A DNA stretch of 53,220 nucleotides, filler included, from Jimgerdemannia flammicorona (taxonomy: Eukaryota), in NCBI GenBank assembly GCA_003990765.1. It is 3 parts of 3 records of this genome, joined end to end, with 100 filler letters (N's around TTAATTAATTAA, not from the genome) between each part and the next. Parts side by side here need not be neighbours in the genome. Positions count along the whole stretch, not along the records: positions 1 to 17,677 come from RBNJ01002455.1; 2 more parts are not named here. One strand, 5' to 3'. The notes beneath the pieces were generated by a model. It was not told where the DNA came from. It did not search any database and saw only the letters and a list, made by a program, of their open reading frames with translations. Numbering within the stretch: the first letter of the stretch is position 1; the number at the start of each line of letters is the position of its first letter. Shown here in pieces: positions 1 through 32,545 of the stretch. Position numbers and translations under genes: made by a program.

Positions 1-474
1 TTAAAAAAAAAAAATAAAAAAAATCTAAATTATATATTAAATATTAGATTATACTTATCTAGAGAGACTATTTCTATTAATTTATCTTTAATCTCCTTAG
101 TTATATCTTTCAACTTAATAAAACTAAACTTATAGTTCTTTTAGTAAATAACATCTTTAATAATTTTAAAAACTTATAGAAGATCTTATAATTATTAATA
201 CTATTTTTATTTATTAACTTTAAAATAAATAAGTAAAATAATATCAGTAGTACAGAAAGTAATGGTAGTAGCTATAGTAGTAAGCTCAAATAGAAGTTAC
301 ACTATTATAAGAAGTAGTAAGTGATAGTGTAATAGTGATCTCAGAATGATGATATCAGTATAAGAGACAGTCTTTTCTTATAAGTTATAAGATCAAAGCA
401 CAAGAAGATTATATAGTATAATCACTCAGACTATAAGATAAGCAATGATGACCAACTATAAGTATCTTAAGGAA

Positions 475-482
475 TATAAAAG
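475..482 (+). promoter_or_regulatory. Putative TATA box in LTR (TATAAAAG)
   Basis: TATAAAAG is present at the same position in all four LTR copies (475, 7681, ~25119, reverse at ~17214-17221), about 80 bp upstream of the LTR ORF start. Confidence 0.5.
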
Positions 483-560
483 AAGGATCAGAAAACTACA
501 GTAACAGTAATCAATAAGACCCACCAATACCAAAATAGCTCAAAGACTTATATAAACAAA

Positions 561-1385: not shown

Positions 1386-1874
1386 GTTATACTGAATTAT
1401 GCCAGCATTCTTTTCCTATATAACAGCTATTTCTCTACTGGCATTCTGATCTTATATAACTCAGAATTATTTTAGCACTATTTTCCTATATCACTGAAAT
1501 TATACCAGTATCCTGAACCTATGCAATCATCTGTACCAATACTAGAACTTGGTAGTTCTAGTATTTTATTTGGTTATTGGAATTTATATTTAGCTTTATA
1601 TCTTAGCAACCATTGAATTATATTTTGTATAAATATTCTTCTTATTTCCTCTGAAATAAAGTCAGTTCTAGTTCCAGTTTACTTACTCTCAATTCTATAT
1701 AAACAATTTAAGAAATAATAAGATAGTTTAAAGATAAGAAGTTTGAGAACTATAAGACCTTAAAAAGGCACTCCAATAAGAACTTGCTTATAATAAACTT
1801 GAGTTAGTCTAAGAGATATACCTTGAAGAGGATCTGATGTATTTGAAGGACTCAGAAACCACTATGTGATAACT

Positions 1875-1890
1875 TGGTACTCATTGGCTA
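1875..1890 (+). other. Putative primer-binding site
   Basis: TGGTACTCATTGGC begins 3 nt after the 5' LTR end; the TGG start is typical of a tRNA-CCA complement. Cognate tRNA not identified. Confidence 0.55.
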
Positions 1891-1927
1891 GTGATTCAAG
1901 GTGAATCTCTCACTTTCAAGCTAAAAA

Positions 1928-4900: not shown

Positions 4901-7151
4901 AATCCTTACTACCCTTGGAAGTGAAGCCAAATACTACACCATCCTGAATCTGTTCTCAGACTTTCATCAGATTGGTCTCACTCAAGATGCCAGTGAGAAA
5001 TCAGCCTTCATCATATCTGATGCCACCTATATCTATCTACAAATGTCATTTGAAATGTGTAATGCCCCAGTAAGTTTTCAGCAAATAATAAATAGAGTCT
5101 TTAGCAATAAAATTGGAAAATAGCTCTTTGTTTATATTGATGATGTAATTATCTTCAGCAATACTATACAAGAACATGTCAACCATATACAACTAGCTCT
5201 CAAGAGACTCAAGGAGTATGGCCTCTATATCAAGCCCAAGAAGTACAAGTTTGTAGCTCAGGAAATCACCTACCTAGGACATCTCATCAACCAGACTAGA
5301 ATCCATACAGACTCTATAAAGATTGAGGCTGTTGCAGCCTACCTAAAACCCAGGACAACTACTGAAGTCCATGCCTTCCTTGGACTGGTCTCCTACTATA
5401 GAAGATTCATCAAAAGATACTCCAACATTACAACATCTATCTATGAGCTACTGAAGAAGGAAACCAATTTTGAATAAACCAAGGAATACTAAGAAATCTT
5501 CAATAAACTCAAGACTAGGTTGACCCAAGCACCCATCCTCAGAAGACCAGATTGGAACCTAGAGTTCATCCTGTAGATAGATGCAAGTACTTTAGGACTT
5601 AGAGCAGTCCTAGCTTAGAAGAAAGATAGATATAAATATGATATCTCCTATATAAGCTAAGGTACCCATGGAGCAGAACAGAACTATGAGTTATGTAAGC
5701 TTGAATACTTAGCAGTAGTTTGGATAGTAGACAAGTTCCACTGCTATCTAGCTAGAAAACACTTCACTATTCAAACAGACCATTCTGCTCTTGCCTGGCT
5801 ATTCCACACTCTGAACTCTAAAGAAATATATGCCAGATAGATCTACAGGCTGTAAGAATATGACTGTACTGTCAAGCTCCACTCAGGAAGAATCAATGCC
5901 AATGCTGATATACTCTCAAGGACATCTCAAAATATCTCCATCAAGACTATTCAACATGAATAAGGAGTTATACTATAGATTAATCAGCTACCTTGGGCAG
6001 CAGAAGATGCTCAATCACCTTGAACTCTAGACTATTACTATTATCAACTAGACTTGGAAACAGTTTGAACTAGACAATACCATACTTAGAAAAGGAGGAA
6101 AATTATAATACCTAAATACAAGAAGTATCAAGTAATGAAGGAAGTACACAAACAAGAACATCTAGGAGGAACCAATATATATAACAAGGCAAGAAGAACT
6201 ATATAGTGGCCCAAAATGGAAGAAGACCTACACCAATTTGTCAAAGAGTATGATAAGTGCCAAAAATAGAAATAAGATCAGCAAGACCAAGCACTTGGAT
6301 TATCAAGAATTGAGCCTATCTCCTTCTACTATATTGTAATAGATATCATTAGACCACTACTAGTGACACTATTAGGAAACTACTATATTATAGTTATTAT
6401 AGACCTCTTTATCAAATAGATAGAAGCAGGAGCATTATAAGAAGCCAATGCCCTCTCTATAGCCAACTTCCTGTATCAAGAAATCATCTGCTGCTACAAG
6501 ACACCAAAGCAAATCACTACAGACCATGATATAGAATTTATCAATAGATTCCATGAGATAATATATCAGAAATACAAGATTTAGCATATCAAGATCACTG
6601 CATACTATCCTCAAGAAAATAGACAGACAGAGAGAACCAACAAGACCCTTAAGAACATACTGGCAAAGATCTCAGACACATATGAGAATTGGGATAACTA
6701 CCTCCCAACTATCCTCTCTATCCTACAAAATATATGGTTATAAAGTATACACTTTACTCTAAGAGAACTGCTCTTCAGAGAAGAAGATTCTGATAGAACC
6801 TCAGTTACAAATCTAGACCTAACTTAAAGACAGATTGACTCAGAAATTCATAGACTACACCAAATCAGGAAGAAGGCTGAAGATTACATTATCAAGTCAC
6901 AAGTACTGACAAGGAAGAATACAGAAAAGAATTACAAAACCCTAGAACTCATCCAAATTGGAGAAAAGGTTCTATTGTATCAAAATATAATAGAAGTCTT
7001 ATGGTTGTAAAAACTGAAGCCCAAATAGGAAGGACCCTTCTATGTGCAAGATATTAAGAGAACTACCTTCTGGCTTAGAAAAAATTCAGAAACTATACTG
7101 CCTACCACAGTACATAGGAACAGACTCAAGAAGTATCATAAACCTATATAA
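1928..7151 (+). pseudogene. gag-pol of G1 (gag, aspartic protease, dUTPase, RT, RNase H, integrase), inactivated by many stops
   Basis: Protease AIIDTGAG (~3410); RT LCIDYRKLN (~4830) and FVYIDDVIIFS (~5130); RNase H QTDHSALAWL (~5775); integrase IDIIRPL, TTDHDIEF, QTERTNKTLK (6340-6650). Start coordinate approximate. Confidence 0.9.
4032..4442 (+). pseudogene. Trimeric dUTPase domain inside G1 pol (between protease and RT)
   Basis: All five dUTPase motifs are readable: AIGIDL, TRSSLA, GGVIDPNYTGEI, DRIDQML, RE(E*)GFGSTG. Confidence 0.92.
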
Positions 7152-7213
7152 GAGAAGCAAAATTTGATAACTACCTACAAGATTCTAGTCTGTGAATTAT
7201 AACAATATGTCTT

Positions 7214-7685
7214 ATGACCAGCAGGCTATCTGTCTGGACTATTCTCTAAGAGATACAGCACCAGCAACTACTTATCCATAAGACTTTTAAAGCCAGAGGA
7301 GTTTGAACCATCAACTAATTGGTCAAGATCAGAATCAGGCCCTTGCTCTATATGAAGGAAGTGACTCTTTACCATTATATCAAAATACAAAAAGAAGATG
7401 CTAGCCCATAAACACTACTTTTCAACCCCCTGCCAGAGGTTATGGGATCAGCAAATTTTTCAGAATTGGATCAATAAATAAGGATGTTTAAGAAGATCCT
7501 TATTTAGAAAGAAGATATAACAGTGATCTCAGAATGATGACATCAGTACAAAAGACAGCCTTTTCTTGCAAGCTATAAGATTAGAGTATAAGATCATATG
7601 GCATGACCACCCAGGCTATAAGATGAGTAATAATAACTAACTATGAGTCATTATGACCACAGTATGAGTATCTTGAGGATTATAA
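7214..7685 (+). pseudogene. Accessory ORF between pol and the 3' LTR, running into U3 (ORF-A)
   Basis: Frame reads ...LLIHKTFKARGV*TIN*LVKIRIRPLLYMKEVTL...PEVMGSANFSELDQ*IRMFKKILI..., with stops explicable as CGA/CAA/CAG->TGA/TAA/TAG. The same frame is conserved in the minus-strand copy at ~17217-17541. Boundaries approximate. Confidence 0.55.
7506..7515 (+). other. Polypurine tract
   Basis: AGAAAGAAGA immediately 5' of the 3' LTR; the minus-strand copy has AGGAGAAAGA at the equivalent site. Confidence 0.65.
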
Positions 7686-7733
7686 AAGAAGAATCAAGGA
7701 ACTGCAGTAGCAGCAACTAACAAGACCCACTAA

Positions 7734-10700
7734 AGGACTTCTTTTGCTCAAAACACTCAGAGCAAGCTAAGCTACACAGATATCCTTTTATGAAAAGCAA
7801 TATGTTTTCAAGTTTTCACTTTACCTATATGGGTATACTAGGTGCAATAGAAGTCTGGCAACAGTTCACTATAAGTTTCATTAAAATATGTCAAGTTTCT
7901 GTCAAATAGTGACTCAGGATTCATTAAGCTCAGAGTGCTTAGAGAGGAGGCCTGGCCTGGATCTCCCCAAGAGTTTTACAGCAATGGCAGGGGCCAGTGC
8001 TGCTGCTGGAGGGACAGGTGGTCAGCAGTGATCAGCTGGTATTGAAGGCTAGCATACAGTGATGGGGAATAGGAGGACTACTACTAGGCCCATAGGGGTA
8101 GAGTAGAGGAGATGTAGTATTGACAGAGAGAGGAGTCAGGTGACTGGTCAGATGGCAGGTCAGATTACTGCCAGGGGACATGGGTCTAGAGGTGGGATAT
8201 ATTCCTAGGGCTGGGCTGGTGGCTGGGCCAGTGGCTGGGGGTGGGATAGCTGGTGGGCTTCCTGGGGCTGGTGGAGTGACTGCTAGTGTCTCAGAAAGTA
8301 AGGAGAAGGTGACAATGGTAGCTGGCTTTGGAGAACTAGTGGTGTATCCTTTTTTCTACAAATTGGTATCAACATGGGCGATCTTGGTGAACTTTCTGAG
8401 ACTGGACTTGTCTGCCAGAGAGGTTTTGAGGCTAGTGAGAGAGAAGATTGCTGGTGCAGAGTCCCTGAAGTTTATTCTGTCAGTAGAGGCAGTGGAGATT
8501 GGCTTTGTAGAGAAGGAGGAGATGATGAAGGCCCTGGAGAAAGGGTTGGTAGTCAAGGGCATCAAGATTGGAATAGTGAGGTGTCTGAGGTAAGATCTAC
8601 ATACAGTACAACTGGTAGTAGAAGAGCTGCCAACTCTTGGAAGACAGGAGATGAAGAGGATAGTGGCAGAGATACTGGTAGGATTTGGTAAGATGGTCAA
8701 CTTTAGATTTATGTTCTGGGAGGGGACTAAGCTGAGGAATGGCAACTGTGAGATCATGGTGAGGCTGGAGGGCAAGGAGGCCACAGGGCTAGGGAGGGAC
8801 TGGCCAGAGGTGATTATGTTGGAAAATAGGAGTGTAAGGTATAGAGAAGGAAAGAATCTGAACAGGAAGAGGAGGAATTTTTGCTTGCTCTAAAGGAGAG
8901 AGAGACTGCAAAGGAACTATATAAGAGGAGATGGGAGGAGTTTGTCAAGGACTGGATCTGGATTCTGACAGATGGGAGGAGGAAGAGATAGCAGAAGGTG
9001 AACTGAGAGTACCTGCAGACAGTCCTCTAAAGTATAAGAATAGAGAAGGAAGTGTGGGTGGAAATAGCCAAGAGTCAGATAGAGGAGATAGAGACAGCCA
9101 AGGTGTCCTTTTCACAACTAGGGGGTGTGGAGAATTCTACTCATATACCAGTTAAGGGAAAGTGGACTGATAAGGAGGAGATAGGTAAAGAGGGCTTTGA
9201 GGATGTTGTTGAGATAGTACCAGAGATCCAGTTGGAGGATGTTTGTATGGCAGGAGCAGCAAATGTTCATTGGAAATATCTAGAGACTGGCAAGATAGTG
9301 TGGCTGGAGAAGGATACTGAGGAGGATGATCTGGTAGATGTAGCCTCTGATGTATCAGCAGACAGAGAGATGCTTTAGGAGCTAATTACTGCTGATGATT
9401 GGTATTAGGTAGTGCTTGAAGAGCTGGTAGAGAAGGATATCAAAGAAGTGGATATATTCAATGAATCTCAGAAGACTTGGAAAAGATTCCTCAATATTGT
9501 ATTGCAGGAGCCAAAACTGATGATGGCAATAGTGGTAGCATTTCTAGATGATGAAGGATATGTGGTTGATGAGGTCCAGATGGCTGATATCAGGAAAGTA
9601 GTAGCTGAGAGAGTAGATATCTTTTGTGGTGGTATGGATGGTACCTATATCTGGAGAACCATTTGTGAAGAATGAAAGGAAATTATCCTTAGTAAGACTG
9701 AGAAAGTGGTAGCAATTCCGGCAGAGCTTTAAACATTCTTCTCAATGATGATGAACAATCTGCATATATTATCACTAAATATCAATGGTCTACATGATGG
9801 AGTGAAGAGGAGGTAGTTATTTTATTGACTAAAGGTCAGGAGGTATAATGTGGTATTTCTTCAGGATATTTGAGCCTATAGTGAGCAGGATTATATAGAA
9901 TAGAGCAAAGAATGGTATGGTAGTATAGAGTAGAATGAGCAGGTAGAGATCTTGATTGGTTTGAAGAGAGGTGAGCTGGTGGAGATTGCAGTTTATAGTA
10001 ATTGATTGGTTTGGGGGAGATTAAAAAGAGGAGCTGGCAATGGGCTTATTATAGGCTCTGCTTACTTACCAGTAGTTGGCAGAGAGCAAAACCAATGGGT
10101 GGAGGGCTGGCTGGCTTGGGAAGGCCAAGAAGGAATTAGGCTAGACATTCTGGGGGGGGGGATTTTAATATGGTACATAACAGAACACTGGATAGATCTG
10201 ATAGTAAGGTGGGTATGGCTGTATCAGTCAGACTCTCACAATGGAGTGGGATATGAGATTAGTTGATGGAGTATAGCAATATCAAGAAGAGTAACCAGGG
10301 CTCTTTACTAGGTGGCATTCAGTTGGTGAGGACTTGGTGGGAACAAGGATTGATTGGATTCTGGTGGCAGAATGCTAGGGTAATGTTAGAAATACAGTAG
10401 TGTCCTTGGTCAGACCACTGGGGAGTTGAGGTGCAGGGGAGGTTTTAGGCAATAGGTGGAGGTAGAGGTCAATGGAAACTTAATGTGGCTCTGCTCAAAA
10501 GGCAGGCTGAGCAGGAATAGTTTGTGGCAATTGCAAGGCAGGAAGTATTGCAGTGAAAGAACAGTAGACAGACAATAGAGCAGTGGTGGAGTAAATTTAA
10601 ACATTTAGCAGGTACTTACTGGTGTGATGTTGGGGAGGTAGCAGGGAGAGAGCAGAAGGATAGAGAGAGGAGAGTGGAGTGGAGACTCTAATAGCAGCTG

Positions 10701-13440
10701 AGGCTGTTGGAAGGAGTGGAGTTATCAGGAGAGTGGTGCTGCCAGTTGACCAAGGAGATGGTTGAGTTGAAATTGAATTTGAGGGCAGCTAAAGGTAGGA
10801 TAATAGATAGTCTGTTAGCAAGATTGTAGGCAAGGCACTTAGAGGAAGGAGAGTAGCCCACTAAATATTTATCAGGAATCTTGAAAGCCTGGAGAGTGCA
10901 GCACAGCTGGGCATCAGTTTTGCAGGAGGATGGGGTTAAGGTTACTGACATTACTGAGATACTTGGTGAGATATCTGGCCAATAGCATGCTCTCTGGCAG
11001 GATGAGGGAGGGCTAGTAGAGAGTGAGGATTCACAGGGGGATAATGATGACTTGGTTGACAGCTGGCCAGTGGTGGCAGTACCTAAGATAGATAGAGCAG
11101 TGATGGGTATGGTAGCTCTTGAAGAGATATTGGAGGTACTGAGGAATATGTAGGCTGGCTTATCACCAGGGGAGGATGGGCTGTCTTGAGAGTTCTAGAG
11201 GAAATTCTGAGCTGAGTTTAGTGAATGGCTAGTCAAGATAGTGAACTTTGTGTTGAGAGAAGATTGCTGGATCAGTAATAGTTCTTTGGGGTTAGTCTCC
11301 CTGTTATATAAGGAGAAAGGAGACCAACATGTATAGAGGAACTGGTGGTCAATTATGTTACTGAATGTGGACAGGAAGCTGGTGTCCAAAATTTTGGCAA
11401 AAAGGATGCAGAGGTGGATTGGCCAATTGGTGGGTGAGGATCAGCAAGGTTTCATTAAGGAGAGGCAGATTCAGGATAGTACTGTCTGAGTGCAAAATGT
11501 TTTGGAGAGCTGTAGAAGTCAACAAATAGATGAACAGATGGTCTTTCTGGATCAAGAAAAGATGTATGACAGAGTAAGATAGAACTACTTGGAGGCAGTA
11601 CTATGGAGAGTTGGGTTCAGTATGATAGAGGCTCAAACCTTGATGGGCCTGGTACATGAGTGTTGAGTGGCAGTACTGATGAATAGATGGTGTGGCCCAG
11701 AGTTTATCTTGAGAAGAGGTGTACTACAGGGGGATTCTCTTTCACCCCTGCTTTATATTTTGTCCTTAGAGTCTTTATTGGTCTGGCTGAAGAAGAGGCT
11801 GACTGGATTATAGATGGAAGATGTGGTCTGGAAGTTGGGGACCTTTGCTGATGATATGGTAGTTGGGTTAGGTTACATGGAGAATTTTGAAAGCCTACAG
11901 GAAGGGGTTGGACAATATGAGAGGCTGACAGGGGTGAAATTGAATTGGGGCAAGTGTGAGATCATGGAACTAGGGGCTGGACTTAGAGAGAATAGATGAT
12001 TTGGATGAACAGTTGGTACAGAAGAGGTAGTCCAATACTTTGGTATCTGGTTTTCAATATATGAAATAGTGCTATCAAAGGAGTGGTAGTGTAGTATGAT
12101 ATAGAAGTAGGAGAGTGCTTTGACAGGATGGTCAGAGAGGGACTTTTCCTTAGTTGGTAGGGTTGTAGTACTAAATATATACTGGTTGCCTAAGCTGTGG
12201 TATCTTGGGTACCATTTGGACTTCCCAGATTAGGTGATATAGCATCTGAAGAAGGTAGTGGAAGGATGGCTGTGGCAAAGAAGATGGCCATAGATTAGTT
12301 GGGAGATAGTAGTAATGAGGACATTGGATGGTGGTCTGGGGCTGGTGGACTTTCAGAGGTGGTTGAAGGCACTTCAAGACTGGTGGAGTTATTGATTGAC
12401 TGAACTAGGTATAGATGATTGGGGCAGACTGGCTATGGACAATTGAGAGGTCAGGTTCTACCCATGTGGTGAGGCAAGGAAGAATATGTGGAGGTTGTTT
12501 CAGATGAGAAGGATCAGTAGATTATATTACAAGGGGTTCTAGTGGGGCATTGTAGAGGCCTGACTGGTGATGAGACTTACTGGTATAGAGCTAGATAATG
12601 AGAAGGACCCAGAGCAGAAATGGTGGTGACTAGGAGATCTTTGTATTGATGGCCACCAGTTGGCAGAATACTCTCTGTCTGGAGCAATAGAATGGATCAG
12701 GACCAGCCTGCTAGAGAGGTGGCCAGTTGGTTGGTAGAAGGTTGGGTTTGGTAAAGATTGGAAGTAGGGTCCAATATAGTAATTAGGGGACTCCTTACAT
12801 AAGGTGGTTCTACCAAAGTTTTGGGTAATATAGTGGAGATTCTTGAGGAGAAATATAATATTGGAGTACTGGACAGAATGGATGGATGCAGAAGATATAA
12901 GAGAATGTGAGTGGTGTTGTGAGGTGGATAGCAGTATAGTGCAGATATCAGAATATATATTGGTTGCTTGTCTGGGGGTTGAAGAGTATTGGCAGACATT
13001 GGAAGGATATTGGGATCATGAGGGTAGATGACTAAGGGACTCTACTGGTCAGGTGATCAAGCAGTGACTGATGGGAGAGACTGGGGACATGTGGGGGGAC
13101 TTGGGCCATATCCTTAGCATCTGGGTCCTGATGGTAGTACATTGGAGATAGGTATTCAAGAAAGATCTCTGGATGGGAATTGGTGAATTGGTAGAATGGT
13201 GGAGATGGTTACTTCTGGAAGTGGTGCAAGGGTGGTGGTTTCAGGGAAGAGACACCAGCTAGGAGCCATAAGGAAGGTACAGGACATTGTGCAGAGGAGT
13301 CACAGGCACCTAGTACTAAATAACAAAGGGGTACAGTGGAGAGAAGGTGTGAGCTGATGGGCCCTGCTCTGTACTTTAGATATATAGTAATTTTCAGATG
13401 AAGTTATTATTATATTAGATATTTGGATAAAAAAAAAAAA
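7734..13440 (+). mobile_element. Full-length L1/Tx1-type non-LTR retrotransposon (family LA), decayed; ORF1 ~7900-9732, ORF2 9745-~13356
   Basis: Poly(A) at 13429-13440; TSD CAAGACCCACTAA (7721-7733) / CAAAACCCACTAA (13441-13453); APE motifs SLNINGL, GGDFN, WSDH; RT motifs FLDQEK.YDRV, QGDSLSP, FADDMVV; C-terminal CEWC...C zinc-knuckle remnant. Confidence 0.92.
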
Positions 13441-14815
13441 CAAAACCCACTAATCCCAAAATAGCTCAAAGACTTACCACAAACAAAATGCCTGCTGCTT
13501 GCCAAACCTCAAGGTCAAGGAATCACCAAGGCCACTCAGTTGAAGAAAGAATATTCCAAGACATCAGAAGAGCCATGAGGACTCATATAAGAAGGACTCC
13601 TAGTGTCAACCTGGATACTAGTGACCCTTATTATTATATCTACTATGAAATGGAAACAAGGATCACCATTGCCACCAAATGCTTCCAAATGTGGCAGGAG
13701 TATGAAATAGGAAACCTCCTCTATCAGGAGTTTCCACAGGCCAGCTCTTAAGAGTTATAAGATACCACTCTCATGGATATATGTGAAGTAAGGACAGTTA
13801 AGAAGATCTATCAGATCTTCAGGCATGCACCATAGTTGATTTCTAACTTAGAGTATATTAGAGTCTCAGACTTCAGAGACCTGTCAGCCTGCTGTATCAA
13901 TATACTAGAAGCTAGAGTAGTAACAGAAGCCCAGTCTACTATCACCCTTGATAGTGATGAGATAGAAGACTTCTGGCATCTCATTCTTCAGGACAACTCA
14001 GATCAATTCCTGTAAGGATTGATCTCAGTATTCCAAGACCTAAGCATCCAGGTTAGACCTCTCCAAGACCCCACATTTTTTCTCTATTTTGTAGAAGAGA
14101 ACCTCATAGATTGGAGAGCCCCCAATTTCTCCACTGAATATAATGATATCATTGGCAATGACATCATCCCATACAACATATGCAAAATATGTGACCTATA
14201 TGATGACAATGAGATAGACAAGATATTCATGGACCTCATCTCTTTTGAAGACATCCTGACCTCTAATGAGGATGAACCCCCTATGGTTCTGAACTTTTTG
14301 CTCTAAGTTATACTGAATTATGCCAGCATCCTTTTTCTGTGTAATAACTATTCCTCTATCAGCATTCTGATCTTGTGTAACTCAGAATTATTCCAGCACC
14401 ATTTTCCTGTATTACTGAAATTATATCAATATCCTGAATCTATGCAACTATCTGTGCCAATACTGGAACTTGGCAGTTCTAGCATTTTATTTGGTTATTG
14501 GAATTTATATTTAGCTTTATATCTTAGCAACCATTGAATTATATTTTATATAAATACCCTTCTTATTTCTTCTGAAATAAAGTCAGTTCTAGTTCCAGTT
14601 CACTTATTCTCAATTCCATACAAGCAATCTAAGAGATAACAAGACAGTTTAAAGATAAGAAACAAGACAGTTTAAAGATAAGAAGTTTGAGGACTATAAG
14701 ACCTTAAGAAGGCACTCCAATAAGAACTTGCTTATAACAAACTTAAGTTAGTTTAAGAGATATATCTTGAAGAGGATCTGATGTATTTGAAGGACTCAGC
14801 GACTACTCCATGACA
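13441..14815 (+). repeat. Distal part of the G1 3' LTR (proximal part 7516-7733)
   Basis: Resumes the LTR sequence exactly where it was interrupted at 7733. Confidence 0.92.
13488..14306 (+). pseudogene. LTR-embedded ORF, copy 2 (273 codons)
   Basis: ORF pieces 13488-13751 and 14019-14306 are in the same frame; MPAACQTSRSRN...EPPMVLNFLL*. Confidence 0.82.
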
Positions 14816-15560: not shown

Positions 15561-15834
15561 TGGGGCTTTTTTAAGTCTTAGTCCATATATCAGTTCTTTT
15601 GAGAGAGTCCTATATATAAGTTCTTTACTCACTTATTTTGAATTTATTTTATCTTCTATTGACTAGTTAGAGGGTTTTCTTTATATCAGATCTTTGTTTG
15701 GAGTTCAGAAGACTATTCCTTATTTAATCTCAGTGTTGCTAGATCTAATATATAAGTATACTCTCATATGTAGTTATGATGATCTAGTTCTGATAAACAG
15801 ATAAGTCTAGTCTATATAGTAAGAGTCAGTATAT

Positions 15835-17542
15835 TGTCACATAGTGGTCACTGAGTCCTTCAAATATGTCAGATTCTCTTCAAGGTATATCTTTTAGACT
15901 AACTCAAGTTTGTTATAAGCAAGTTCTTATTAGAGTGTCTTCTCAAGGTCTTATAGTCCTGAAACTTCTTATCTTTAACTATCTTGTTATCTCTTAGATT
16001 GCTTGTAAGAAAGTGTGTATATTGCACTGAGTTGACTGAGTTTATTTTAGAAGAAATAAGAGGGGTATTTATACAAAATATAATTCAATAGTTGCTAAGA
16101 TATAAAGCTAAATATAAATTCCAATAATTAAAATAAAATGCCAGAACAGAAAAAACTGCTAAGTTCCAGGGTCAGCACTGATGGTTGTATAGGTTCAGGA
16201 TACTGGTATAATTTGGTGTCACATCAAAATACTGGTGCTGGCATTATTTGGTGTTATATCAAAATACTGGTACTGGCATTATTCAGTGTTATATCAAAAT
16301 ACCAGTACTGGCATTACTCAGTATAACCAAGGGACTTAGAGCAGAATGTTCAAGACTATAGGGGCTTTGTTATCAGAGGTCAGGATGTCTTCAAAGAAGA
16401 TGAGGTCTACAAATTCATCATCATCACATAGGTCATGCAGGATGATGTCATCGTCAATGACATCATTATATTTGGTGACAGGAAGGAGGTCTAGAGCTCT
16501 CCAGTCTATGAGGTTCTCTTCTACAAAATAGGGAACAAATGTAGGGTCTTGGAGAGGTCTAACCTGGATGCTTGGATCTTGGAATACTGAGATCAATCCT
16601 TACAGGAATTGGTCTGGGTTGTCCTGAAGAATAGGATGTCAGAAGTCTTCTACTTCATCACTATTGAGGGTGATAGTAGACTGGGCTTCTGTAGCCACCC
16701 TGGCTTCTAGTGCATTAATATGGCAGAATAACAGATCTCTGAAATCTGAGACTCTAACATACTCCAAGTTGGGGATTGACTATAGTGCATGCTTGAAGAT
16801 CTGATGGATCTTCTTAGCCATCCTTGCCTCACATATATCCATGGGAGTGACATCTTGTAGCTCTTAAGGGCTGGCCTGTGGGAACTTCTGGCAGAGGAGG
16901 TTTCCTATCTCATACTCCTGCCACATTTGGAGGTATTCAGTAGCAATAGAGATCCTTATTTCCATTTTACAGTAGTAGAGGATATAGTGATAAAGGTCAC
17001 CAGTACCCAGGTTGACACTAGGAGTCCTTCTTGAGCTGATTCTCATGACTCTTCTGATGTCTTGGAACATCCTCTCTTCAACTGAGATACCTTGGTAGTT
17101 CCTTGACCTTGAGGTTTGGTGAGCAGCAGGCATTTTGTTTGTAGTAAGTCTTTGAGATATTTTGAAATTTAGTGAGTCTTATTGGTTGCTGCTACTGTGG
17201 TTCCTTAATCCTTCTTTTATATTCCTTAGGATGCTTGTACTGTGATCACAATGACTCACAGTTGGTCATCATTGCTCATCTCATATACCATATGATCTTC
17301 ATATGCTTCAATCTAGTGGCTTGCAAAGAAAGACTGTCTTCTGTACTGATGTTATCATTCTGGGGTCACTATTACATCTTTCTCCTGAATAAGGATCTTC
17401 TCAAGCATCCTTATTCATTGGTCTAGCCCTGAAAAATTTGCTGATCCCATAACTTCTAGCAAGGGGTTGAAAAGTGGTATTTATGGGCTAGTATCTTCCC
17501 TTTGTATTTTGGTATGATGGTGAAGAGTCACTCTCTTCATAT
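15835..17542 (-). mobile_element. Truncated G1-family element: 3' LTR (15835-17376) plus ~165 bp of internal 3' sequence
   Basis: Reverse-complement LTR with intact TG (17376) and CA (15835) ends; 17377-17542 matches the reverse complement of ~7350-7515, including the PPT. Confidence 0.9.
16336..17133 (-). pseudogene. LTR-embedded ORF, copy 3 (266 codons)
   Basis: ORF pieces 16864-17133 and 16336-16596 are in the same frame. Confidence 0.82.
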
Positions 17543-18152: not shown

Positions 18153-19202
18153 AAATGACGGCCCCGCCGTTTTTCGTGGTAGCGTAAGGGATGTTGAGCA
18201 AAAACAATACTGTGTGGGGTTTGTGGCACGGTCGCCGGTGGCGATTGCACCTATGTATGGTCCATGATCTCTATCTATCAAGTGTATTTTTGGCTTATCA
18301 GTTTCTAATCAGATACATACCTGTTGGTATACCGCGTGTTCTCACTTTCAGACTTTCCGTTTCTGAGACACATTATCTAAAGTGACCCTTGCAGGGGATA
18401 CGGTAGTGGGGAGGAGCTCGAGTAGGATAGCCTGGCGAAGCGGAGAAGAGTGGCATTGTTGAGACGTGTGGTGAATGAAGAAAGTTGGGGGAGATGAGAA
18501 GCTAAGGACCCATCAACGTAAATCCTCTCCACTTGCCAATTTCCAAACCCTCTGGAGTCAGGACTTGACTTCACTAACTGATTGCAAAACCGCGGACACA
18601 CTAAATTCTAATACTGCTTAAGGATTTCTGGCTAATGATCCCGTTGGCTTCGAAATGAAAACCGATAGCGACTGTAGTACGCAAACTCTCCCCTGATGCA
18701 CACACCATTCCCCATCAACTCTCCTCGTCGCCAAATCTTCCACGACCACAAGCCTGCCGCTCCAACCATATACTTTCCCCACGAGCCCCTGCGTATATCG
18801 ACCTTTGGGATCATGAGAATCGTCAGGGACAGCGACTTCCGGCTGAGCCCGATCCAGAAAGGTTTAGGCAAGTGAGCAGGAAAGATTAAAGCCGTGACCT
18901 GGATTTATTCTTTCTTTTGGGGGGCGGGTGCTTGTAAATACAATATCGTAATGTTAGAGTATCCCCGTAGGATCAGATCAGGAGGCCAGCCACCAACAGT
19001 ATTAATATGCAAATGGCATAGGCACGAAGACTCGGAACATTAATAAACTAAAAGCATGTACATCGGCAATTTATTTACATAAACTCTGAGATCTACCCCA
19101 CACAGGAAACACGACACCCATCCCACCGAACGTAAGCCAGTAGGACGCCCAAAGCACGGGACCTCAGATGCGGTCGAAAAGTAGTCATAAGCGAAATATT
19201 GA

Positions 19203-19372
19203 CAAGAAATGGAGAATGCAAAGAGAAGAGAAATGCTAGAGGATTACAAGAAATGTTGAGAATGCAAAGAGAAGAAAAATGCTAGAGGATTAGAAGAAAT
19301 GTTGAGAATGCAAAGGGAAGAAAATGCTAGAGGATTAGAAGAAATGTTGAGAAGAAAAATGCTAGAATATTA
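19203..19372. repeat. ~45-46-bp purine-rich minisatellite, about 3.7 units
   Basis: Unit AAGAAATGTTGAGAATGCAAAGAGAAGAAAAATGCTAGAGGATTA(G/C); only one unit is present in the paralogous flank at ~22223-22266. Confidence 0.85.
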
Positions 19373-19434: not shown

Positions 19435-20112
19435 CTACTCCATCACGAGCTGTTCATCTTCAAGAAACCTAAACTCGCGAGCGCGCAAGGAGTTTAGGAC
19501 TTTTACTAACGAGGTCGCGTCTTTCAGGACATGGCTTCGGACGCCCTGTGCGCGAAGTATCTCGGCCACGTTCCAGACACCGATGTCAGCAGAGACCACG
19601 AAACAGGTCTTCCCGAGGAATTGCTTGGTGACTAACCAGCGCGTGGCGTGCAGATTCATCTCGTAATCTGCGGCATCCGCGTATGGGCGGCTCGTATGAA
19701 TGACGTGGATCTTCTTCAAGAATATTTCGTGAATTTTGGGGCCGGCTGGCCCGTAAAACGCGACCGTCTCAAAGATTGTTGGGTCGGGATAGGTAGCGCA
19801 AATTTTAACACAATCACCACGGTTGTCACCATCAATCAGGAAGACAATCGGCGTCTGGCGGTTGAGGTCGACTAATGTGGTGGTGGTGGTGGTGACGGCG
19901 GCGGTGGTGGCGGCAGCGGTAGCGGCGGTAGCGATGGTAGCGGCGGCGGAGGCGGCGACGGCGGCGGCGGCAGCGGTAGCAGTGGCGGCGGCGGTGACGG
20001 CAGCGGCGGTGGCGGCAGGTGCTTCTTGTCGAAACACTTGGGCCAATGTCCTCTGGCGTGGCCTGTGGTTGGGCTGGAGCTTCAAAGCAACCTTGGTGTG
20101 TTTCGAGTCCAT
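19435..20112 (-). CDS. Intronless NYN/PIN-fold putative ribonuclease with N-terminal poly-Ala/Thr tract (225 aa from ATG at 20112)
   Basis: IVFLIDGDN ... AFYG ... ADAADYEM ... FVVSADIG ... AEILRAQG matches the NYN/LabA-DUF88-like PIN pattern (DxxN, central D, SxD); frame is open. Confidence 0.72.
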   Translation of the reverse strand: MDSKHTKVALKLQPNHRPRQRTLAQVFRQEAPAATAAAVTAAATATAAAAAVAASAAATIATAATAAATTAAVTTTTTTLVDLNRQTPIVFLIDGDNRGDCVKICATYPDPTIFETVAFYGPAGPKIHEIFLKKIHVIHTSRPYADAADYEMNLHATRWLVTKQFLGKTCFVVSADIGVWNVAEILRAQGVRSHVLKDATSLVKVLNSLRAREFRFLEDEQLVME

Positions 20113-22322
20113 GGACAGGAACTGTGACGCGTAAACTATTGAACTATTCAGTGATGTCACGTGGCATGACAGACACGTGGCCACAATTTCCTATGCTTCT
20201 TCCACACAACCACGTAATGGTGCTGGTTCGTGAGCTTGAAAATCTTACGTCGTTCGAGCTTTCGTAAGGCGCGGAGGATGAGTACGTTATAATTACTATT
20301 CGTCCGCGTATGGTCATCAGGAAGGGGTTTTGTCAGTATTTCTGATAACTCTGTATGAGGTTCGCATGGTTGCTGATCTTTCGTCGTTCTTTCAGGTGGC
20401 CTGTACGTTGCTGGTATCAGAGCCCTCTTGCATGGGGTCGGGACGCCGCCGCGCAGGTGGGTCGTCGTCAGGTAGTGAGTCTTCGTTGTGACATGTGGGG
20501 CCAATTGTTTCGTAGGGGAGCATCGTACCATTAGGTTGCTTATCGTTATCTTTGTCCCGTAGGTCAGAGGGGGAATACGGTAGAAAGCTACGAACACTGT
20601 GCATGCATATAAACAGAGAGGATCGACAGATTATTCTGGATATTCTGGATCCATCTTCTCGGCCGTTATTTGAGATTTCGGGCTGAGCCTTGCTACTACC
20701 CCCGAATAACTTATCCTGCAAGCACAATAACCGTCGGTGTCCTACGGGCACGGCCCCGGCCCGGCCCGGTAAGTGCTCTTCAATACCTTTATCCGACAAG
20801 CATAAAGAACACTGTTATCATCTCTCTCATTGCGAATGAGATATATATAAAAAAAAAAAAAAAAAGAGTAAGGGATATGTCTGCCTGTCCAAAGAGAGTG
20901 GTTGGGAGGGTAGGTTGCGTGGCATGACACGGAAGGAGGGCTATGACTATCTATCGAGCATTGCTAATTGTTGCTGACTACGGTGCCCATATGTCGTTAT
21001 TTGGAATGCATTCGTGCAATGCTTTCGCTTAGATTTTCATGGCAGAATGTCCGAACACTACAACAAGCCGCAATGATCTGAAATATATGGATGTAAGTTG
21101 GCGTCTTATTGATACATCTGTACCGTATTTACGGATATGTATATACATTGTTTGGTTATGTTTGAGATGGTTGTTATAAACAATGCAAATGGATCCCAAT
21201 TCCTCTTTTCACGGACCTCGTCTTACTAATAATTTTTTTCTTTTCACTCATGAACAGAAAAATCGACTTCATTACGGCAGACAACCGTCCGGACAGCACG
21301 ACCTGAAACCCACGTAAACCCCTTTCTCTCGAGTTTCTTACCTATCGTAGTAATAATCTAGTTGATAACATGGTAAGAAAGGCACAGGGTCATTCCTTTG
21401 ACTGTGCCCTCCTTGATACAACACTTTATCTTACACGGCCCCACTGTACCGCTCATTTTTCTCACTTGGACGATCTGAAGACCAACGAGGTTGTGATACA
21501 ATTTACGGAGGTCGGCATTGCTTCTATTATTACCAGCATAATTGACTCGAGAGTTTCTAATGTTAAAAATTGTATTAATCACACAGATCACTCGCACGTT
21601 CTAATGAACACTTCTCGCGGTGCACCCACCTCACTAGGAAAATCAACTTCGCACAGGAATTCCGGATGTAAGCAAAATGCCGCTGTAAGTTTCTAAACTC
21701 ACTTGTGATCTCCTACGGCAACCGGAATTACCCCCCTTCTCGTCCTTTCCCTTCCGCCATTTGCTTGTTGGTGAACATCCGTATCGCCCATGGCTTACCT
21801 GTTGTTGTTACTTACATGTTGGCTGCTCCGTCGCCCATTACTTACCATCGCCTATTGCTTGCCGCCGGCCCCCGTGGCATTGGTGTGTTACCGACACCAA
21901 TGACTCGATCCTGCCATGGTTAACTATCCCAGTGGCCCTCCATCGTCTGGAGGTAAAATTTGGCGGCATTGGGGGGTCACCGTCAACAATGGCTCGATCT
22001 TGCAAGATTAGGCGCCGTGGTTGACGGCCCGCAATGGCCCTCCATCACATGGAGGTATAATTTGGCGGCACAAACTAAAAGTATGCACATCGGCAATTTG
22101 TTTTACATAAACTCTGAGATCCACCTCACACAGAAAACATGACATCCACCGAACGTAAGCCAGTAGGACGGCCAAAGCACGGGACCTGAGATGCGGTCGA
22201 ATAGTCATAAGCGAAATGTTGACAAGAAATGGAGAATGCAAAGAGAAGAAAAATGCTAGAAGATTAGAAAAACGCCGTGCCATTTGCTACGGGAGGGTTT
22301 CCGCCCATACACAAATCAGTGC

Positions 22323-22709: not shown

Positions 22710-24297
22710 ATGCTATCAACTTGGTGGATTCTCTTAGTTTTTTATTAATATATATATATATAGCAAAGAAGCGTTGGTATTAGGGCTCGAGTCCATGTGG
22801 TTCAGTGAAAGGGACGGGATTCAAAAAAAAAAAAAAGTGTGATGCAAATATGCGACGTCACTCTTTACGCCCCCATCAGCATTAGAGAGTTCCACGTGGA
22901 TGATCCAGATCGCGTCACGATAGGGAGGTACTTAAGAAGTTGTCCTCGAGAAAGTTGTATAGGTCCTTGTCCTGGATTGTGAGATGAGGCTGGAGGGATC
23001 TCAGAGGAAGGGGCGATGGCGTAGTGATGCATACGATATTTATATTCACACGTATCATTTCGCTTACTGCTTCCGTGCAGTACACCCTGACCTAGAACAG
23101 TCAACACCACGAGGTAAACGCTTAGTTTTCCTTCTTATCAACCTTAGCTCGCCTTTTGAACACATACATTCATGTTATGTATTTTATCCGTCAGCCTTGC
23201 GTGCATGTTCCCAAAATCCAAGGCACTGCCAAACCCTCCCGTTTCCACACAACCTCTTCGCATACCAGTTCGATCGCTCGCATCACTGGCTCCACCCTTT
23301 CCTTGAACCTATGTTGATGAAACCGAAATCATCCTTCTTTGACATGTCCAATGGCGAACTCAACGAGTAGCTCAAAAAACTTGGGTATAATTTTACTGAT
23401 TGCGTGTTCTTGTCTGATCACTTGGAATCCTAGTTTATCGCTCTTTCTTCCTCCTGTTCTTAAACCCAAAGAACACGCACCGATTCCTTTTCTGTTTCTT
23501 AAATCCAGAGAACATGCATCAATTGGTATTCGCCGGTTTCTTAGGCTGGATAGATAGCATCTCTATATAAGATACTGGCAAAGAGTGTTGATGTCTGAAT
23601 TAACCATCTGAAGAGGGTTGGAAATTCATTAGCAACCAGCAACTCATAAAGGCAATGCATCAAATAAAAGTAAGTCTAAAATCACATCTGTTTCTCATCT
23701 TTATATATCAACTCTCTCTTATTAATAAGCTATATAGTCTATTCTCAATAATGTACTTAACATAAGATATGTATAATAATACTGCAAAAATAGAGCTAGT
23801 TATTTACAAATTAAGTCATCAGAATGTTCTATAGAATAATGAGATAAATAATAAAAGATAGTCTGAAAAATATATTTTTATAAAAACTATAGTTTGAAAT
23901 ATATATCTATTACTCATTAATCTTATAAAAAAAGAGATAAATTTTTTATCTTTTCTTTATATTTTTCTCTTAACTCTTTAATAACTTTCTTTTATATAAT
24001 TATATATAATTTTAATCTTATTTATGGTAAATAATCTCTCAATTTATATTATATTATACTGTATAAAGTCTAAATAGTATAATATATAATAATAATATAT
24101 ATAAGAGTTTTATAAATTTTTAAATATAAAAAAGATTATAAAATAATAATAATTTTAGTAATATATATTATATTATTCATTTTTATCTTCTAGTTTATAA
24201 TTTATATAATTTATATATTTCTTACTCTATAGTATAGGTAAATTTATCTACAAAAATATTCAATATAAAATATCTCACTCTATACTATACATATCTA

Positions 24298-24806
24298 TAG
24301 TATTCCAAATAAGATAATCTGGATCAATTCAAAGTAGCTTATAAGTGATATAATTTGATATATTAATATCATTGTTTTGATTTTCAAATTAGACAATTAA
24401 ATATTTATATCAATAACTTGATAAAATATCATCTAATTTTAATGATTATAGTATTATTTAAAAGCTCTTAATAAGGTCTTTCTAATGATATTAATAATAT
24501 TGAAATTAGATAATATATTGCTAAGTTATTAAGAAAAATATCCTATTTGCTAATTGTGAAAATATTGATAACTTAGTAATATATTATTCAATTTTAATAT
24601 TCTTGATATTATTAGAAAGATCTCTTTAAGGACTTTCAAATGATACTATATATAATCATTAAAATTAGATAATTTTTCATTAAGTTATTAATATAAAATT
24701 TAATTATTTAATTTGGAAATTAAAACAATAATATTGATATATCAAATTATACTATCTACATATAAGCTATTTTGAATTGATTCGGATTGGCTTATTTAGA
24801 GCACTA
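24298..24806. mobile_element. AT-rich foldback/MITE-like element with ~235-bp inverted arms
   Basis: The left arm TAGTATTCCAAATAAGATAATCTGGATCAATTCAAAGTAGCTTATA... matches the reverse complement of the right end ...TATAAGCTATTTTGAATTGATTCGGATTGGCTTATTTAGAGCACTA along nearly the whole length. Confidence 0.75.
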
Positions 24807-25205
24807 CTATCTATAATATAAATATATATACTATAATTCTAATATAGGTAAATATCTATAAAGTTTAGAGTAAAATACTATAGTTTATACTTTATAATAT
24901 TTATAAGTATAAATTATATATAACTAAAATATAGATAAATATATATATCTACTAGCTATTTATTATAATAGTGACTCCAGAATAATGACATCAGCATAGG
25001 AGACAGCCTTTCCTTGCAAGCCACCAGATCAGAGTACAAGAAGATTATATGGCATATGAGATGAGTAATGATGACCAACTGTGAGTTATTGTGACCACAG
25101 CATAAGTATTTTGAGGAATATAAAAGAAGGATCAAGGAACTACAGTAGCAGCAATTAACAAGACTCATCAATCCCAAAATAGCTCAAAGACTTACTACAA
25201 ATGAA

Positions 25206-26063
25206 ATGCCTGCTGCCCACCAAACCTCAAGGTCAAGGAACTACCAAGATACCTCAGTCAAAGAAAGGATATTCCAAGACATTAGAAGAGCTATAAGGAC
25301 CTGCTCAAGAAGAACTCCTAGTATCAACCTGGATACTGGTGACCCTTATTACTATATTCTCTACTGCTATAAAATGGAAACTAGGATCACTATTGCTACC
25401 GAATACCTCCAAATATGGCAGAAGTATGAAATAGGAAACCTCCTCTGCCAGGAGTTCCTATAGGCCAGCACTCAAGAGCTACAAGATACTACTTCCATAG
25501 ATATATGCGAAATGAAGATAGCTAAAAATATTCATCAGATCTTCAGACATACACCATAATTGATCCCCAACTTGGAATATGTTAGAGTCTCAGATTTCAG
25601 AGACCTATCATCTCACCATATTAATGCACTAGAAGTCAGGGTGGCTATAGAAGTCCAGTCCACTATCACCCTCAATAGTGATGAAGTAGAAGACTTCTGG
25701 CATCCTATCCTCCAGGACAACTCAGACCAATTCCTACAAGGATTGATCTCAGTATTCTAAGGCCCAAGTATCCAGGTTAGACCTCTCCAAGACCCCACAT
25801 TTGTCCCCTATTTTGTGGAAGAGAACCTCATAGACTGGAGAGCTCCAGATCTCCTTATTTCTACTGCTACTGAATGTGATGACATCATTAGTGATGACGT
25901 CATCCTGCACAACTTTGACATATGTAAAATGCACGACGAAGTATGCAAAGTATGCAAAATATACAACCTATACAACAAATTTACAGACCTCATCTCCTTT
26001 GAAGATATCCTGACCTCTGATGACAAGGATGAAGCCCCCATGATCCTGAACATTCTGCTCTAA
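25206..26063 (+). pseudogene. LTR-embedded ORF, copy 4 (286 codons)
   Basis: Three ORF-track pieces (25206, 25560, 25815) are all in one frame. Confidence 0.82.
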
Positions 26064-26087
26064 GTCCCTTGTTATATTATACTGAAT

Positions 26088-26175
26088 AATGCCAGTACTG
26101 GCATTCTGAGGTGATATGAAATTATTTCAGCACTAGTATTTTGAGGTAATACTGAATAATGCCAGCATCAGTATT
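26088..26175. repeat. 35-bp-period array with 18-bp palindromic core inside the LTR
   Basis: Perfect palindrome AATGCCAGTACTGGCATT at 26088-26105, degenerate copies at 26123 and 26158; same array at 16228/16263/16298. Confidence 0.8.
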
Positions 26176-26550
26176 CTGATGTAAAACTGAATTATACTAG
26201 CATTCTGAACCTGTACAACTATCAGTACCAACCCTGGAACTTAGTAGTTTTAGTTATTGAAATTTATGTTTAGCTTTATATCTTAGCAACCATTGAATTA
26301 TATTTTGTATAAATACTCCTTTTATTTCCTCTGAAATAAAGTCAGTCTTCTTAGTATAATATATACACTTCCTTATAAGCAATCTAAGAGATAACAAGAC
26401 AGTTAAAGATAAGAAGTTTGAGGACTATAAAACCTTGAGAAGGCACTCCAATAAGAACTTGCTTATAACAAACTTGAGTTAGTCTAAGAGATACATTTTG
26501 AAGAGAATCTGGCATATTTGAAGGACTCAGCAACTACTATGTAACATTAT

Positions 26551-26655
26551 ATACTAGCTAGGATCAACCTATTTATACTAGCTAGAATAAATCTATCTAT
26601 ATTAGTTAGGGTCTATTTATCTATACTAGTTAAAGTCTATCTATATTAGTCAGAC
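26551..26655. repeat. Degenerate ~20-24-bp minisatellite
   Basis: TCTATACTAGYTAG-like unit repeated about five times. Confidence 0.6.
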
Positions 26656-28249: not shown

Positions 28250-28276
28250 ATTAACAAAGTACTATAGTCTTTTTCT

Positions 28277-30512
28277 GATAATATTTAGATTACACAAACT
28301 TCTGACAATACTCAAGACTTCATTTTTGGAGAAAAGATACTAGCAATATAGTGACTGATGAGTATTCTGAGATATATGCTGAGCAGGGTGACCCTAGTAT
28401 ATTCAACTAACAGCATATAAGGAGAAGTCATGACTTGGGAAGAAGCATGAGGGGCTTGCTAGCTGGAGGATATAGAAGAGGAAGAGGTAGTGCCGGGGGA
28501 CAGAAGATGGGGAGAATGAGCTTCACAGACAAGGTGAAGGATAGTTGACTAATGACAGCAACTAGACTGAAGGACTAGCTAAAGAAAGACAAAGAGACAG
28601 TAAAGACTGTAGGTTCTAGAGGAGTAGCCTATGGAGACAAGAGCAATAGGGCTAAGAGAGTAGTGGCTGAGAGGAGTGGGACTGCTGATAGTATGAAGAC
28701 TACTAATTTGGAAAAAAAATCCAGATATAACTATTGATAGTGAATCTAGACAGAGGGTGGACATGAGACCTGGGGACCTGGCAGATGGTATAATGGGACT
28801 GATGGTGGTACTATTACTCAAGAAGTCAAGATTGGAATTTACTATTACATTATGTTTCTAAGGCTTGGTAGTAATAGTAAGGATGATTCTAGGGCTTCTG
28901 GCCTAGAAGGTAAAGGGGGCTGCTTCAGTAAAGTTTTTGAAGAGACTAAAAGGAGTGAAGATAGGCTTTGAGAAGGAGAAGGTACTATTGGAGGCTGTGG
29001 AGAAAGGAGTAGTAGTGGGGGGAGTGGTGATCTCTATAGCCCAGTACTTATACTAGAACCCCTGAGTAGTATAGCTGATAGTACTGAATATTCTTATAAT
29101 GTCAAAGGAAATGGCCAGGGGGCTGATTGTAGAGACTGTTAAGGAGTACAGAGAGATCATGGATATTGTGTTTAGGGTCTAGGAGAGTACTGAATTCAGG
29201 ATTGAGGATGTAGACATTAGGGTATAGCTAGTATGTAAGGAGAATATGAGAAAAGCAAGGGACTGACCAGCAGTTCTTAAGTAGGAACCTGTGAAGTATA
29301 AGGTCTCACAAGTGAAAGGGATGCTGAAGAAAGAAGAGGACTTACTAGAGGCATTAGAGAACTTGGCTAGAGTTGTGAAGAGGAGGAGATTGATCTGAAA
29401 GGAGTATGAGGCCAAAATGGTTATAGAGATTGTCAATGGTAAGAAGATACAGATAGATTAGGCAGTCTGGGAGTGGGTGTAGGGGAGGCAGATTTAGAAT
29501 GACCTGTTGGTAAAGTTGAGAGAGAGAACAGTAGAGGGGCCTATTGCTGAAGATGCTGGATCACAAGTAAGTATCTGGATAGAAGAGAAAGAGGTGACTC
29601 CTGAGGTAGTTCAGAGAGAGAGAGGTGGCTCTGGGTTAAGTATCATCATAGAAGATACAGAGATGATCAAGAGGGGGTACCCTCAGTATAGAGTACTGGG
29701 CAGGACTACTGGTGAGAAGAAACTGAAGAAAGATTGGAATAAGTCAGCAAGAGGAAATACTGAGGGAGAGCAGATAGAAGGGGTGAAGAGAGTGGCCCAG
29801 AGAGTTGAGAAGATTGTGGATGAGGAGAAGTGGCTGTGGAAAATACTTGAGAATGTGGTAGCTGAGGAGCTAGAGAGAGAGGATTTTTGAGTACTAAGTA
29901 AGAGGGGAGATTCTGCATGATAAGAAGGTGCTAAGGAAAATCTATAATGAGATAATGGCAGTACTGCTGGAGGCTGAGGTTTATCAAGTGAATGATAACA
30001 GAGAGGCAGTATTTAGAGTAATTGTGAATGATTGAGCAGCTTATATGTGAGGTCTGAGGAAGAGACTGGAAAAGTGTCAGATAGTATGTAAGAAGTATCA
30101 GTCAGAGATAGAGATTGTGAATAGGGTAGATTGTTAGGAGATCTTGGCAATACTGGATGCTTAGTAGGAAGTAGTAGATGAGCTTGAGGCAGAAAGAAAC
30201 TTAGATCTTATGGGTGATAGAATGAGCATAAAATTGTAGGGTGAGCATATCTTCTTAAAAAACATTATTCAATATAAATAGTATAACTAGAATATTTTCT
30301 TTGAATATCAATAGACTGTGAGGTACAATGAGATATCAGAATCTCTTTAGTTGATTGAAGGAGTTGAATATAGACCTTTTCTTATTGCAGAATGTAAGCT
30401 ATAATATAGACTTAGACTTACTGGACTGGACAAGAGAATAGAGAGATATGGTAGTATGATAGAATTGAGTAGAGGATATTGGGGATATTGGACATTGGGG
30501 GAGCAGATTGGT
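28277..30512 (+). mobile_element. Old L1/Tx1-type LINE (family LB), 5' part (5'UTR, ORF1, start of ORF2), interrupted by a younger copy
   Basis: Colinear with 39994-42240 and with the young copy at 30513; CpG-depleted with many stops. Confidence 0.85.
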
Positions 30513-30598
30513 ACGTCCCTTTTCACCAGTAACATTCGGGTGACACAAGACTCAGACAACACTTTTTACAACGTTTTTGGTGTCCGACGACTAATAAC

Positions 30599-32514: not shown

Positions 32515-32545
32515 ATTGGGGTCTCTTCTACAATATCTACTCAAT

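Follow-up and report, generated by a model that had tools for sequence, protein, structure and literature searches.

The window analysed here, a stretch of 53,220 nucleotides of Jimgerdemannia flammicorona DNA with its filler letters included, contains four copies of one long terminal repeat (LTR) of about 1.55 kb, labelled A, B, C and D (Table 1). A and B are the two LTRs of a decayed Ty3/gypsy element with pol domains for a dUTPase (E 1.2e-25), a reverse transcriptase (RT), an RNase H and an integrase. The copies fell into two subfamilies, A/B and C/D, with identities of about 86% inside each pair and about 80-83% across the pairs, and all four of them are dead. Read in the sense direction, the same order was found in 4/4 copies: a TGT start, about 240 nt, a decayed open reading frame (ORF), a tandem array, the block TATAAATA-N19-AATAAA, about 200 nt and an ACA end. 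The ORF comprises about 285 codons and ends in ...LNxLL followed by TAA. Array and signal block are about 115-130 nt apart. In C and D, the array begins 15-19 nt after the ORF stop and ends 116-127 nt upstream of TATAAATA; for D, the distances to TATAAATA are 229 nt from the start of the array and 116 nt from its end.

Table 1. Coordinates of the LTR copies, their arrays and their signal blocks in the window.
Feature	Position	Strand	Remarks
LTR A	328-1871	+	5' LTR of the dUTPase-bearing Ty3/gypsy element; internal part 1872-7515
Rearranged array of A	1390-1522	+	direct units, spacings 36, 34, 33; half sites only
Signal block of A	TATAAATA 1628-1635; AATAAA 1655-1660	+	
LTR B, first part	7516-7733	+	3' LTR of A's element; interrupted by nested insertion 7734-13438
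LTR B, remainder	13439-14815	+	array about 14310-14443; TATAAATA 14549-14556; AATAAA 14576-14581
LTR C	15835-17376	-	3' LTR of an element on the minus strand; inner side (17377 onwards) with a purine-rich tract, then internal sequence
Signal block of C	16041-16073	-	TATAAATA 16073-16066; AATAAA 16046-16041
Array of C	16201-16316	-	TRF: period 35, 3.3 copies, 87% matches, score 169; ORF stop codon 16336-16338
LTR D	24964-26546	+	solo LTR; perfect 4-nt duplication TTAT at 24960-24963 and 26547-26550
Decayed ORF of D	25206-26063	+	3 in-frame stops; end ...ILNILL then TAA
Array of D	26079-26208	+	three 35-nt units and a shortened fourth; anchors GYATTYTGA start at 26100, 26135, 26170, 26199
Palindrome of D	26088-26105		AATGCCAGTACTGGCATT, sole perfect 18-nt palindrome in the window
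Signal block of D	26308-26340	+	TATAAATA 26308-26315, 19 nt, AATAAA 26335-26340; putative promoter and poly(A) signals

Other features were seen around these copies. The regions 28276-36039, 39993-45693 and 7734-13438 carry RT and terminal A runs (36014-36039, 45675-45693 and 13430-13441) and look like non-LTR retrotransposons; the G-over-C skew of their sense strand is extreme (0.43-0.53 per kb), an RVT_1 match (E 4.2e-19) lies at 34301-34936 inside the first of them, and the one nested in LTR B shows an apparent target duplication of about 11 nt (ACAAGACCCAC / ACAAAACCCAC). The solo LTR D is embedded in DNA of 16% G+C; its surroundings (24281-24820, 26550-26644) include a stretch of 540 nt that is self-complementary at 78% identity, as well as a repeat of 155 nt, and a 24-nt x 4 tandem repeat begins directly at its downstream flank. 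The DNA between C and D is richer in G+C, with a 46-nt x 3.3 tandem array of 93% matches (19204-19353), a 209-nt direct repeat of 88.5% (19045-19252 versus 22072-22272) and GGC/CGG-rich runs at 19877-20018. Two pairs of 44-nt N runs, 12 nt apart within each pair (17678-17721/17734-17777 and 35453-35496/35509-35552), were read as assembly gaps or masked stretches, one of the pairs interrupting the internal region of LTR C's element.

The array of the C/D subfamily had been picked out by a sequence-only reading, which placed unit starts at 16228, 16263 and 16298 in C and at 26088, 26123 and 26158 in D, with a period of 35. Both TRF and a repeat search reproduced these units: start-to-start spacing was 35 and 35 in either copy by the repeat search, and for D the TRF interval was 26079-26192, with a period of 35, 3.3 copies, 75% matches and a score of 128. 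The same reading had described a perfect palindrome among the units, and this was found for one unit only, the 18-mer AATGCCAGTACTGGCATT at 26088, which shows 9/9 complementary pairs and is the single such case among the 52,969 18-mers of the window. Seventeen others, mostly A+T-rich, reached 8/9 pairs, a score that is also that of the 18-mer at 16298. Matches to AATGCCAGTACTGGCATT with up to three mismatches numbered 3, against 0.02 expected, and this number was reached in 0/100 shuffles. The half-site 7-mer ATGCCAG/CTGGCAT was present 23 times in the window when both orientations were counted, against about 4.5 expected, with 9 of the 23 falling within the four arrays.

When the six C/D units were compared at base level, they showed 5, 6, 8, 9, 4 and 4 of 9 pairs. 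In purine/pyrimidine space, the corresponding values were 9, 9, 9, 9, 7 and 9 of 9, a full score being reached by 84 of the 52,969 18-mers that form the background. As five of the six units are perfect in purine/pyrimidine terms, they go back to a single palindrome that was multiplied and then decayed, with hardly any changes other than transitions, and they do not count as six independent events. Within the units, the core was not visibly better conserved than the spacer; as every copy is decayed, conservation cannot be judged from this comparison.

The rearranged array that had been proposed for A and B is also real, and is made of direct units with half sites only. TRF reported no array in either copy, and the repeat search yielded three direct units (spacings of 36 and 34) and a fourth at 33; inverted pairs of at least 10 nt were absent from these arrays. 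In the first and fourth units, a core of 10 nt (ATGCCAGCAT and ATACCAGTAT) forms a palindrome when bases are compared as purines and pyrimidines. Common to both subfamilies is the anchor GYATTYTGA, which is found in four direct copies per LTR, each preceded by CCRG/CYGG. The 18-nt palindrome is confined to C/D, and the A/B element was complete and devoid of it at insertion. Therefore, the palindrome is not essential to the family.

Per 50 alignment columns, those with a transversion or gap numbered 13-15 in the array and 13-35 over the acidic ORF tail; the ORF core had 0-2 and the TATA block 0. The array is a fast-turnover module between conserved blocks, and in a related contig of a public run (X2), the segment corresponding to 16133-16333 is swapped for other sequence. 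The array and the ORF tail had been said to vary together by subfamily; this holds in the weak sense that both are hypervariable, but co-variation is not demonstrable with two subfamilies.

A neutral origin of the array was also considered. A segment of about 35 bp with a chance palindrome may have been duplicated by replication slippage in a non-coding LTR spacer, without any function, a possibility that we rate as real but rather unlikely. It would fit with the abundance of tandem arrays in the window (87 TRF rows), with the array being the most indel- and transversion-rich non-coding part of the LTR, with the lack of the palindrome in A and B, whose element inserted all the same, and with the six palindromic units being one evolutionary event that was then copied. 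Slippage does not readily explain, however, why the period of about 35 and the four direct anchors were kept in both subfamilies despite 20% divergence and a different unit content, nor why the array is placed where LTR enhancers usually sit, and a G+C-rich palindrome of 18 nt is itself rare by the counts given above (one perfect and 17 at 8/9).

The state of the units before decay was approached from the substitution pattern. The observed/expected ratio of CpG was 0.0-0.09 in the LTR copies versus 0.28 in the whole window. Between A and B, which are LTRs of one insertion and now diverge by 14%, 212 transitions and 7 transversions were counted, and the decay of this pair is hypermutation-like, unlike ordinary drift. 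Polarised singleton changes were 98 C>T and 66 G>A versus 34 T>C and 38 A>G. In the A/B pair, C>T changes were seen before A, C and T, and the CpG dinucleotides remaining were 0 and 1.

Unit alignment showed that the alternation of CTGG and CCAG, from which an ancestral, methylatable CCGG had been proposed, is real. At one homologous unit, A has CTGG and B has TCAG; both LTRs were identical at insertion, and if only C-to-T and G-to-A changes are allowed, the two variants resolve solely to CCGG. The right half sites of C and D (CTGG, CCAG, CTAG and TCAG) point to a CCGG ancestor too. The proposal is thus supported for the right half but not for the left one, which is CCAG in five of the six C/D units and in the first unit of A and of B, and is never CTGG. 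The left half was probably already CCAG when the units multiplied. In that case, the ancestor would have been an 8/9 palindrome, and the last matching pair of the D unit would have been gained by CpG decay of the right half. All these statements on the pre-decay motif refer to four dead copies.

Less decayed relatives were present in two small public runs (X1 and X2), in contigs that were 82-99% alike to the window, none of them reaching 99%. They depart from the window mostly by G or C in place of A or T, with A>G and T>C as the most frequent changes in X1; differences near contig ends within the array were left out of the listing. Among the short contigs of these runs, those 90-95% alike to LTR C (15832-17350) showed a k-mer depth of 600-10,000 in a run of 35 million letters, so that the family of LTR C, or a less decayed relative, would be very abundant or highly expressed there. 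That X1 and X2 are RNA runs is a guess, as none of the runs listed was on record as RNA; their contigs cannot show RNA ends, and differences in depth along the LTR are not interpretable. An exact 21-nt pattern taken from the conserved promoter block had 0 matches in metagenome contigs. Protein-guided scans returned 543 pattern stretches in metagenome contigs and 125 in viral contigs, with 0 confirmed in both cases, and in genome contigs one 15-residue match within a bacterial MAG (L001), which was regarded as spurious.

The TATAAATA-N19-AATAAA block was conserved in 4/4 LTR copies. Judging by these consensus signals, TATAAATA would be a TATA-box promoter and the array would belong to U3. If TATAAATA is the promoter, the start site would be located approximately at AATAAA, R would be short, and both the ORF and the array would lie within U3. 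Alternatively, TGTATAAATA could presumably be a poly(A) efficiency element of the fungal type. The array was also considered for such an efficiency role and set aside, as it is found 150-260 nt upstream of AATAAA. In C, an extra half site (CTGGCAT, sense) was noticed between the array and the TATA box at 16138-16144, about 60 nt upstream of TATAAATA; its homologues near 1573 (A) and 14495 (B) are decayed, and in D it is deleted.

Our preferred reading, on which our confidence is evenly balanced, is that the array may be a cluster of sites for a sequence-specific factor controlling LTR transcription. It is based on traits of the array that agree with those of U3 enhancer or response repeats: it lies upstream of the TATA box, is directly repeated, has a G+C-rich palindromic core in A+T-rich surroundings and turns over between subfamilies. 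The array would act as a hypervariable upstream module of U3, its three to four direct repeats of about 35 bp lying between the ORF stop and the TATA box, some 115-230 nt ahead of the latter. Before decay, each unit would have had a CpG-containing core, CCGG followed by CATTCTGA, which in the C/D subfamily was presumably extended to the 18-nt palindrome. The units would be candidate binding sites, and the factor recognising them may have driven or tuned transcription of the element, as the enhancer or response repeats of retroviral and plant LTRs do; on the palindromic version, this factor was probably a dimer. Short direct repeats of two units or more, as expected of enhancer repeats, were present in both subfamilies (35 nt x 3.3 in C/D; 36/34 in A/B).

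The U3 of Tnt1 also holds tandem boxes. In the Tnt1 superfamily, U3 is a fast-evolving regulatory module that distinguishes LTR subfamilies and, as in the LTRs described here, the coding sequence is common to the subfamilies and indels and substitutions are concentrated in U3, according to the part of PMC1838419 that deals with these elements. In contrast to the present family, that of Tnt1 belongs to Ty1/copia and has no LTR-borne ORF.

With respect to the protein that would occupy these sites, the ORF product of the element is a less likely candidate than a transcription factor of the host. A CCGG core would suit a fungal zinc-cluster factor, and we mention this as a lead, for which the supported part is the CGG pair of the right half. 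According to passages of PMC10954478, Zn2Cys6 proteins recognise CGG triplets in inverted, direct or everted arrangement, such as CCG-N4-CGG for Leu3, and Gsm1 needs CCGG. The likeness lies in the right half, the putative pre-decay form of which includes CCGG; a left half of CCGG would turn the core into CCGG-TA-CCGG, an everted CCG-N4-CGG repeat. The array departs from such sites in that the second triplet is unsupported, the left half being CCAG.

The location of the array is also compatible with a role in RNA. As it lies 15-19 nt past the ORF stop and upstream of AATAAA, it would be transcribed from the 3' LTR, and the palindromes could form hairpins in the 3' untranslated region of the genomic RNA, and of an ORF mRNA if there is one, that serve nuclear export, stability or packaging, possibly bound by the ORF protein in a Rev/RRE- or CERV-type manner. 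There is a precedent in the accessory protein CERV of the Ty3/gypsy element Cer1, which is needed for export of the genomic RNA, as stated in a part of PMC10309623. The fold energy of the array was somewhat lower than that of shuffled sequences, with a z of -2.19 for D (4/200 shuffles as good) and of -1.96 for C (7/200). Nevertheless, C and D were predicted to fold differently, and in neither minimum-energy structure do the 18-mers form a local hairpin; a palindrome without spacer leaves a stem of only 7 bp, and inverted arms are lacking in A and B. Rfam gave no match at the gathering level in this search, the sole hit being snoRNA-like (E 0.31) and outside the array. For these sequences, we consider an RNA element distinctly unlikely.

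The ORF itself was analysed through its intact relatives. Four relatives with E values of 1e-3 or lower were obtained among 243 candidates, and five representatives in 1.84 billion proteins. They share an arginine-rich, basic N-terminus, a conserved core that is helical for the most part and, at the C-terminus, a tail that is acidic and hydrophobic (...DLISFEDI...EAPxILNFLL). Pfam returned 0 families for the relative P0001 at E values up to 1 and, when eight relatives (P0001-P0008) were searched, a weak ATG5_HBR match in 2/8 (best E 0.088); the sequences of PDB chains gave 0 matches to the ORF protein at E values up to 1. An AlphaFold2 model built from eight sequences was poor (pLDDT 49.6), and a wide structural search with VIA-align on this model gave a best Z of 5.0, for a single long helix. 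The ESM Atlas gave a top feature score of 0.83 and a model of its own with a pLDDT of 0.35. The Pfam, PDB, Atlas and model searches neither support nor exclude DNA binding by the ORF protein.

These data bear on the proposal that the LTR encodes both the reader and the target, that is, that the ORF protein would bind the units in its own U3 and either transactivate, like Tax on its TRE or the Tas of foamy viruses, or remove silencing like VANC, with binding sensitive to methylation through the CCGG core. In favour of it, every LTR, the solo copy included, carries the ORF and the array side by side, a CCGG is supported for the pre-decay units, and the basic N-terminus, helical core and acidic hydrophobic tail follow a layout common in activators. 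The direct anchors, all in one orientation, also resemble the arrangement of VANC motifs as described in part of PMC5735166. Against this, neither a domain nor a fold for DNA binding was detected in the searches above (Pfam, 0 families for P0001; PDB, 0 matches; pLDDT 49.6; best Z 5.0), the array changed between the subfamilies and the ORF core hardly did, and variation in the ORF falls in its acidic tail, an unlikely reader of DNA. We regard self-recognition of this kind as quite improbable, the least probable of the readings considered.

The VANC precedent on which that proposal was modelled had been cited accurately: VANC21 binds a 9-nt motif that accumulated in the non-coding tandem repeats of VANDAL21 (from sections of PMC5735166). 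The likeness is structural, and consists of a short motif in one orientation, multiplied in non-coding tandem repeats with fast turnover, and of an accessory protein, as far as the VANDAL side is covered in those sections (PMC5735166); on our side, the motif corresponds to the four direct GYATTYTGA anchors per LTR in both subfamilies. By contrast, VANDALs are DNA transposons, and the 9-mer recognised by VANC21 is not palindromic and is scattered over several non-coding regions; moreover, binding and loss of methylation were demonstrated for VANC (same sections of PMC5735166), whereas the units described here are putative binding sites.

The retroviral systems offer a second comparison. In a part of PMC7601775, the U3 of HTLV-1 and BLV is described as containing three 21-bp TREs with imperfect CRE palindromes, and that of FeLV a 21-bp triplication. 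As in HTLV-1 and BLV, the element studied here has an accessory protein gene at its 3' end, so that the combination of a 3' accessory ORF with U3 repeats seen in Tax/TRE and Tas is reproduced as a layout only, with the ORF ending 15-19 nt before the array. The retroviral core is, however, a CRE (TGACGTCA) to which CREB/ATF of the host binds, Tax being a cofactor (same part of PMC7601775), and the motif found here is different. In the present case, the LTR contains the whole ORF and the host is probably fungal, and the Pfam and PDB sequence searches detected no homology. The ORF0 of Retrosat2 was considered as a parallel and rejected, as it lies upstream of gag-pol and outside the LTR according to the part of PMC3485330 that describes it. 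Among the titles and abstracts surveyed, none described an equivalent, either as a transactivator encoded by an LTR retrotransposon and acting on its own LTR or as an ORF within a fungal LTR.

Repeated upstream elements in U3 are the usual route by which LTR elements gain or change expression control, and the array alone is therefore ordinary. Its setting makes it slightly more than that, as it follows immediately on a protein gene located within the LTR, and its units held a methylatable CCGG in repeats that are now stripped of essentially all CpG. Should intact copies be obtainable, the array would provide a short and concrete candidate target for probing the LTR-borne protein. If self-recognition were true, each LTR, even a solo one, would be a self-contained pair of regulator and response element, and the family would have either a retrovirus-like positive feedback or a VANC-like escape from silencing by cytosine methylation, in a genome where repeats are destroyed through C-to-T mutation.
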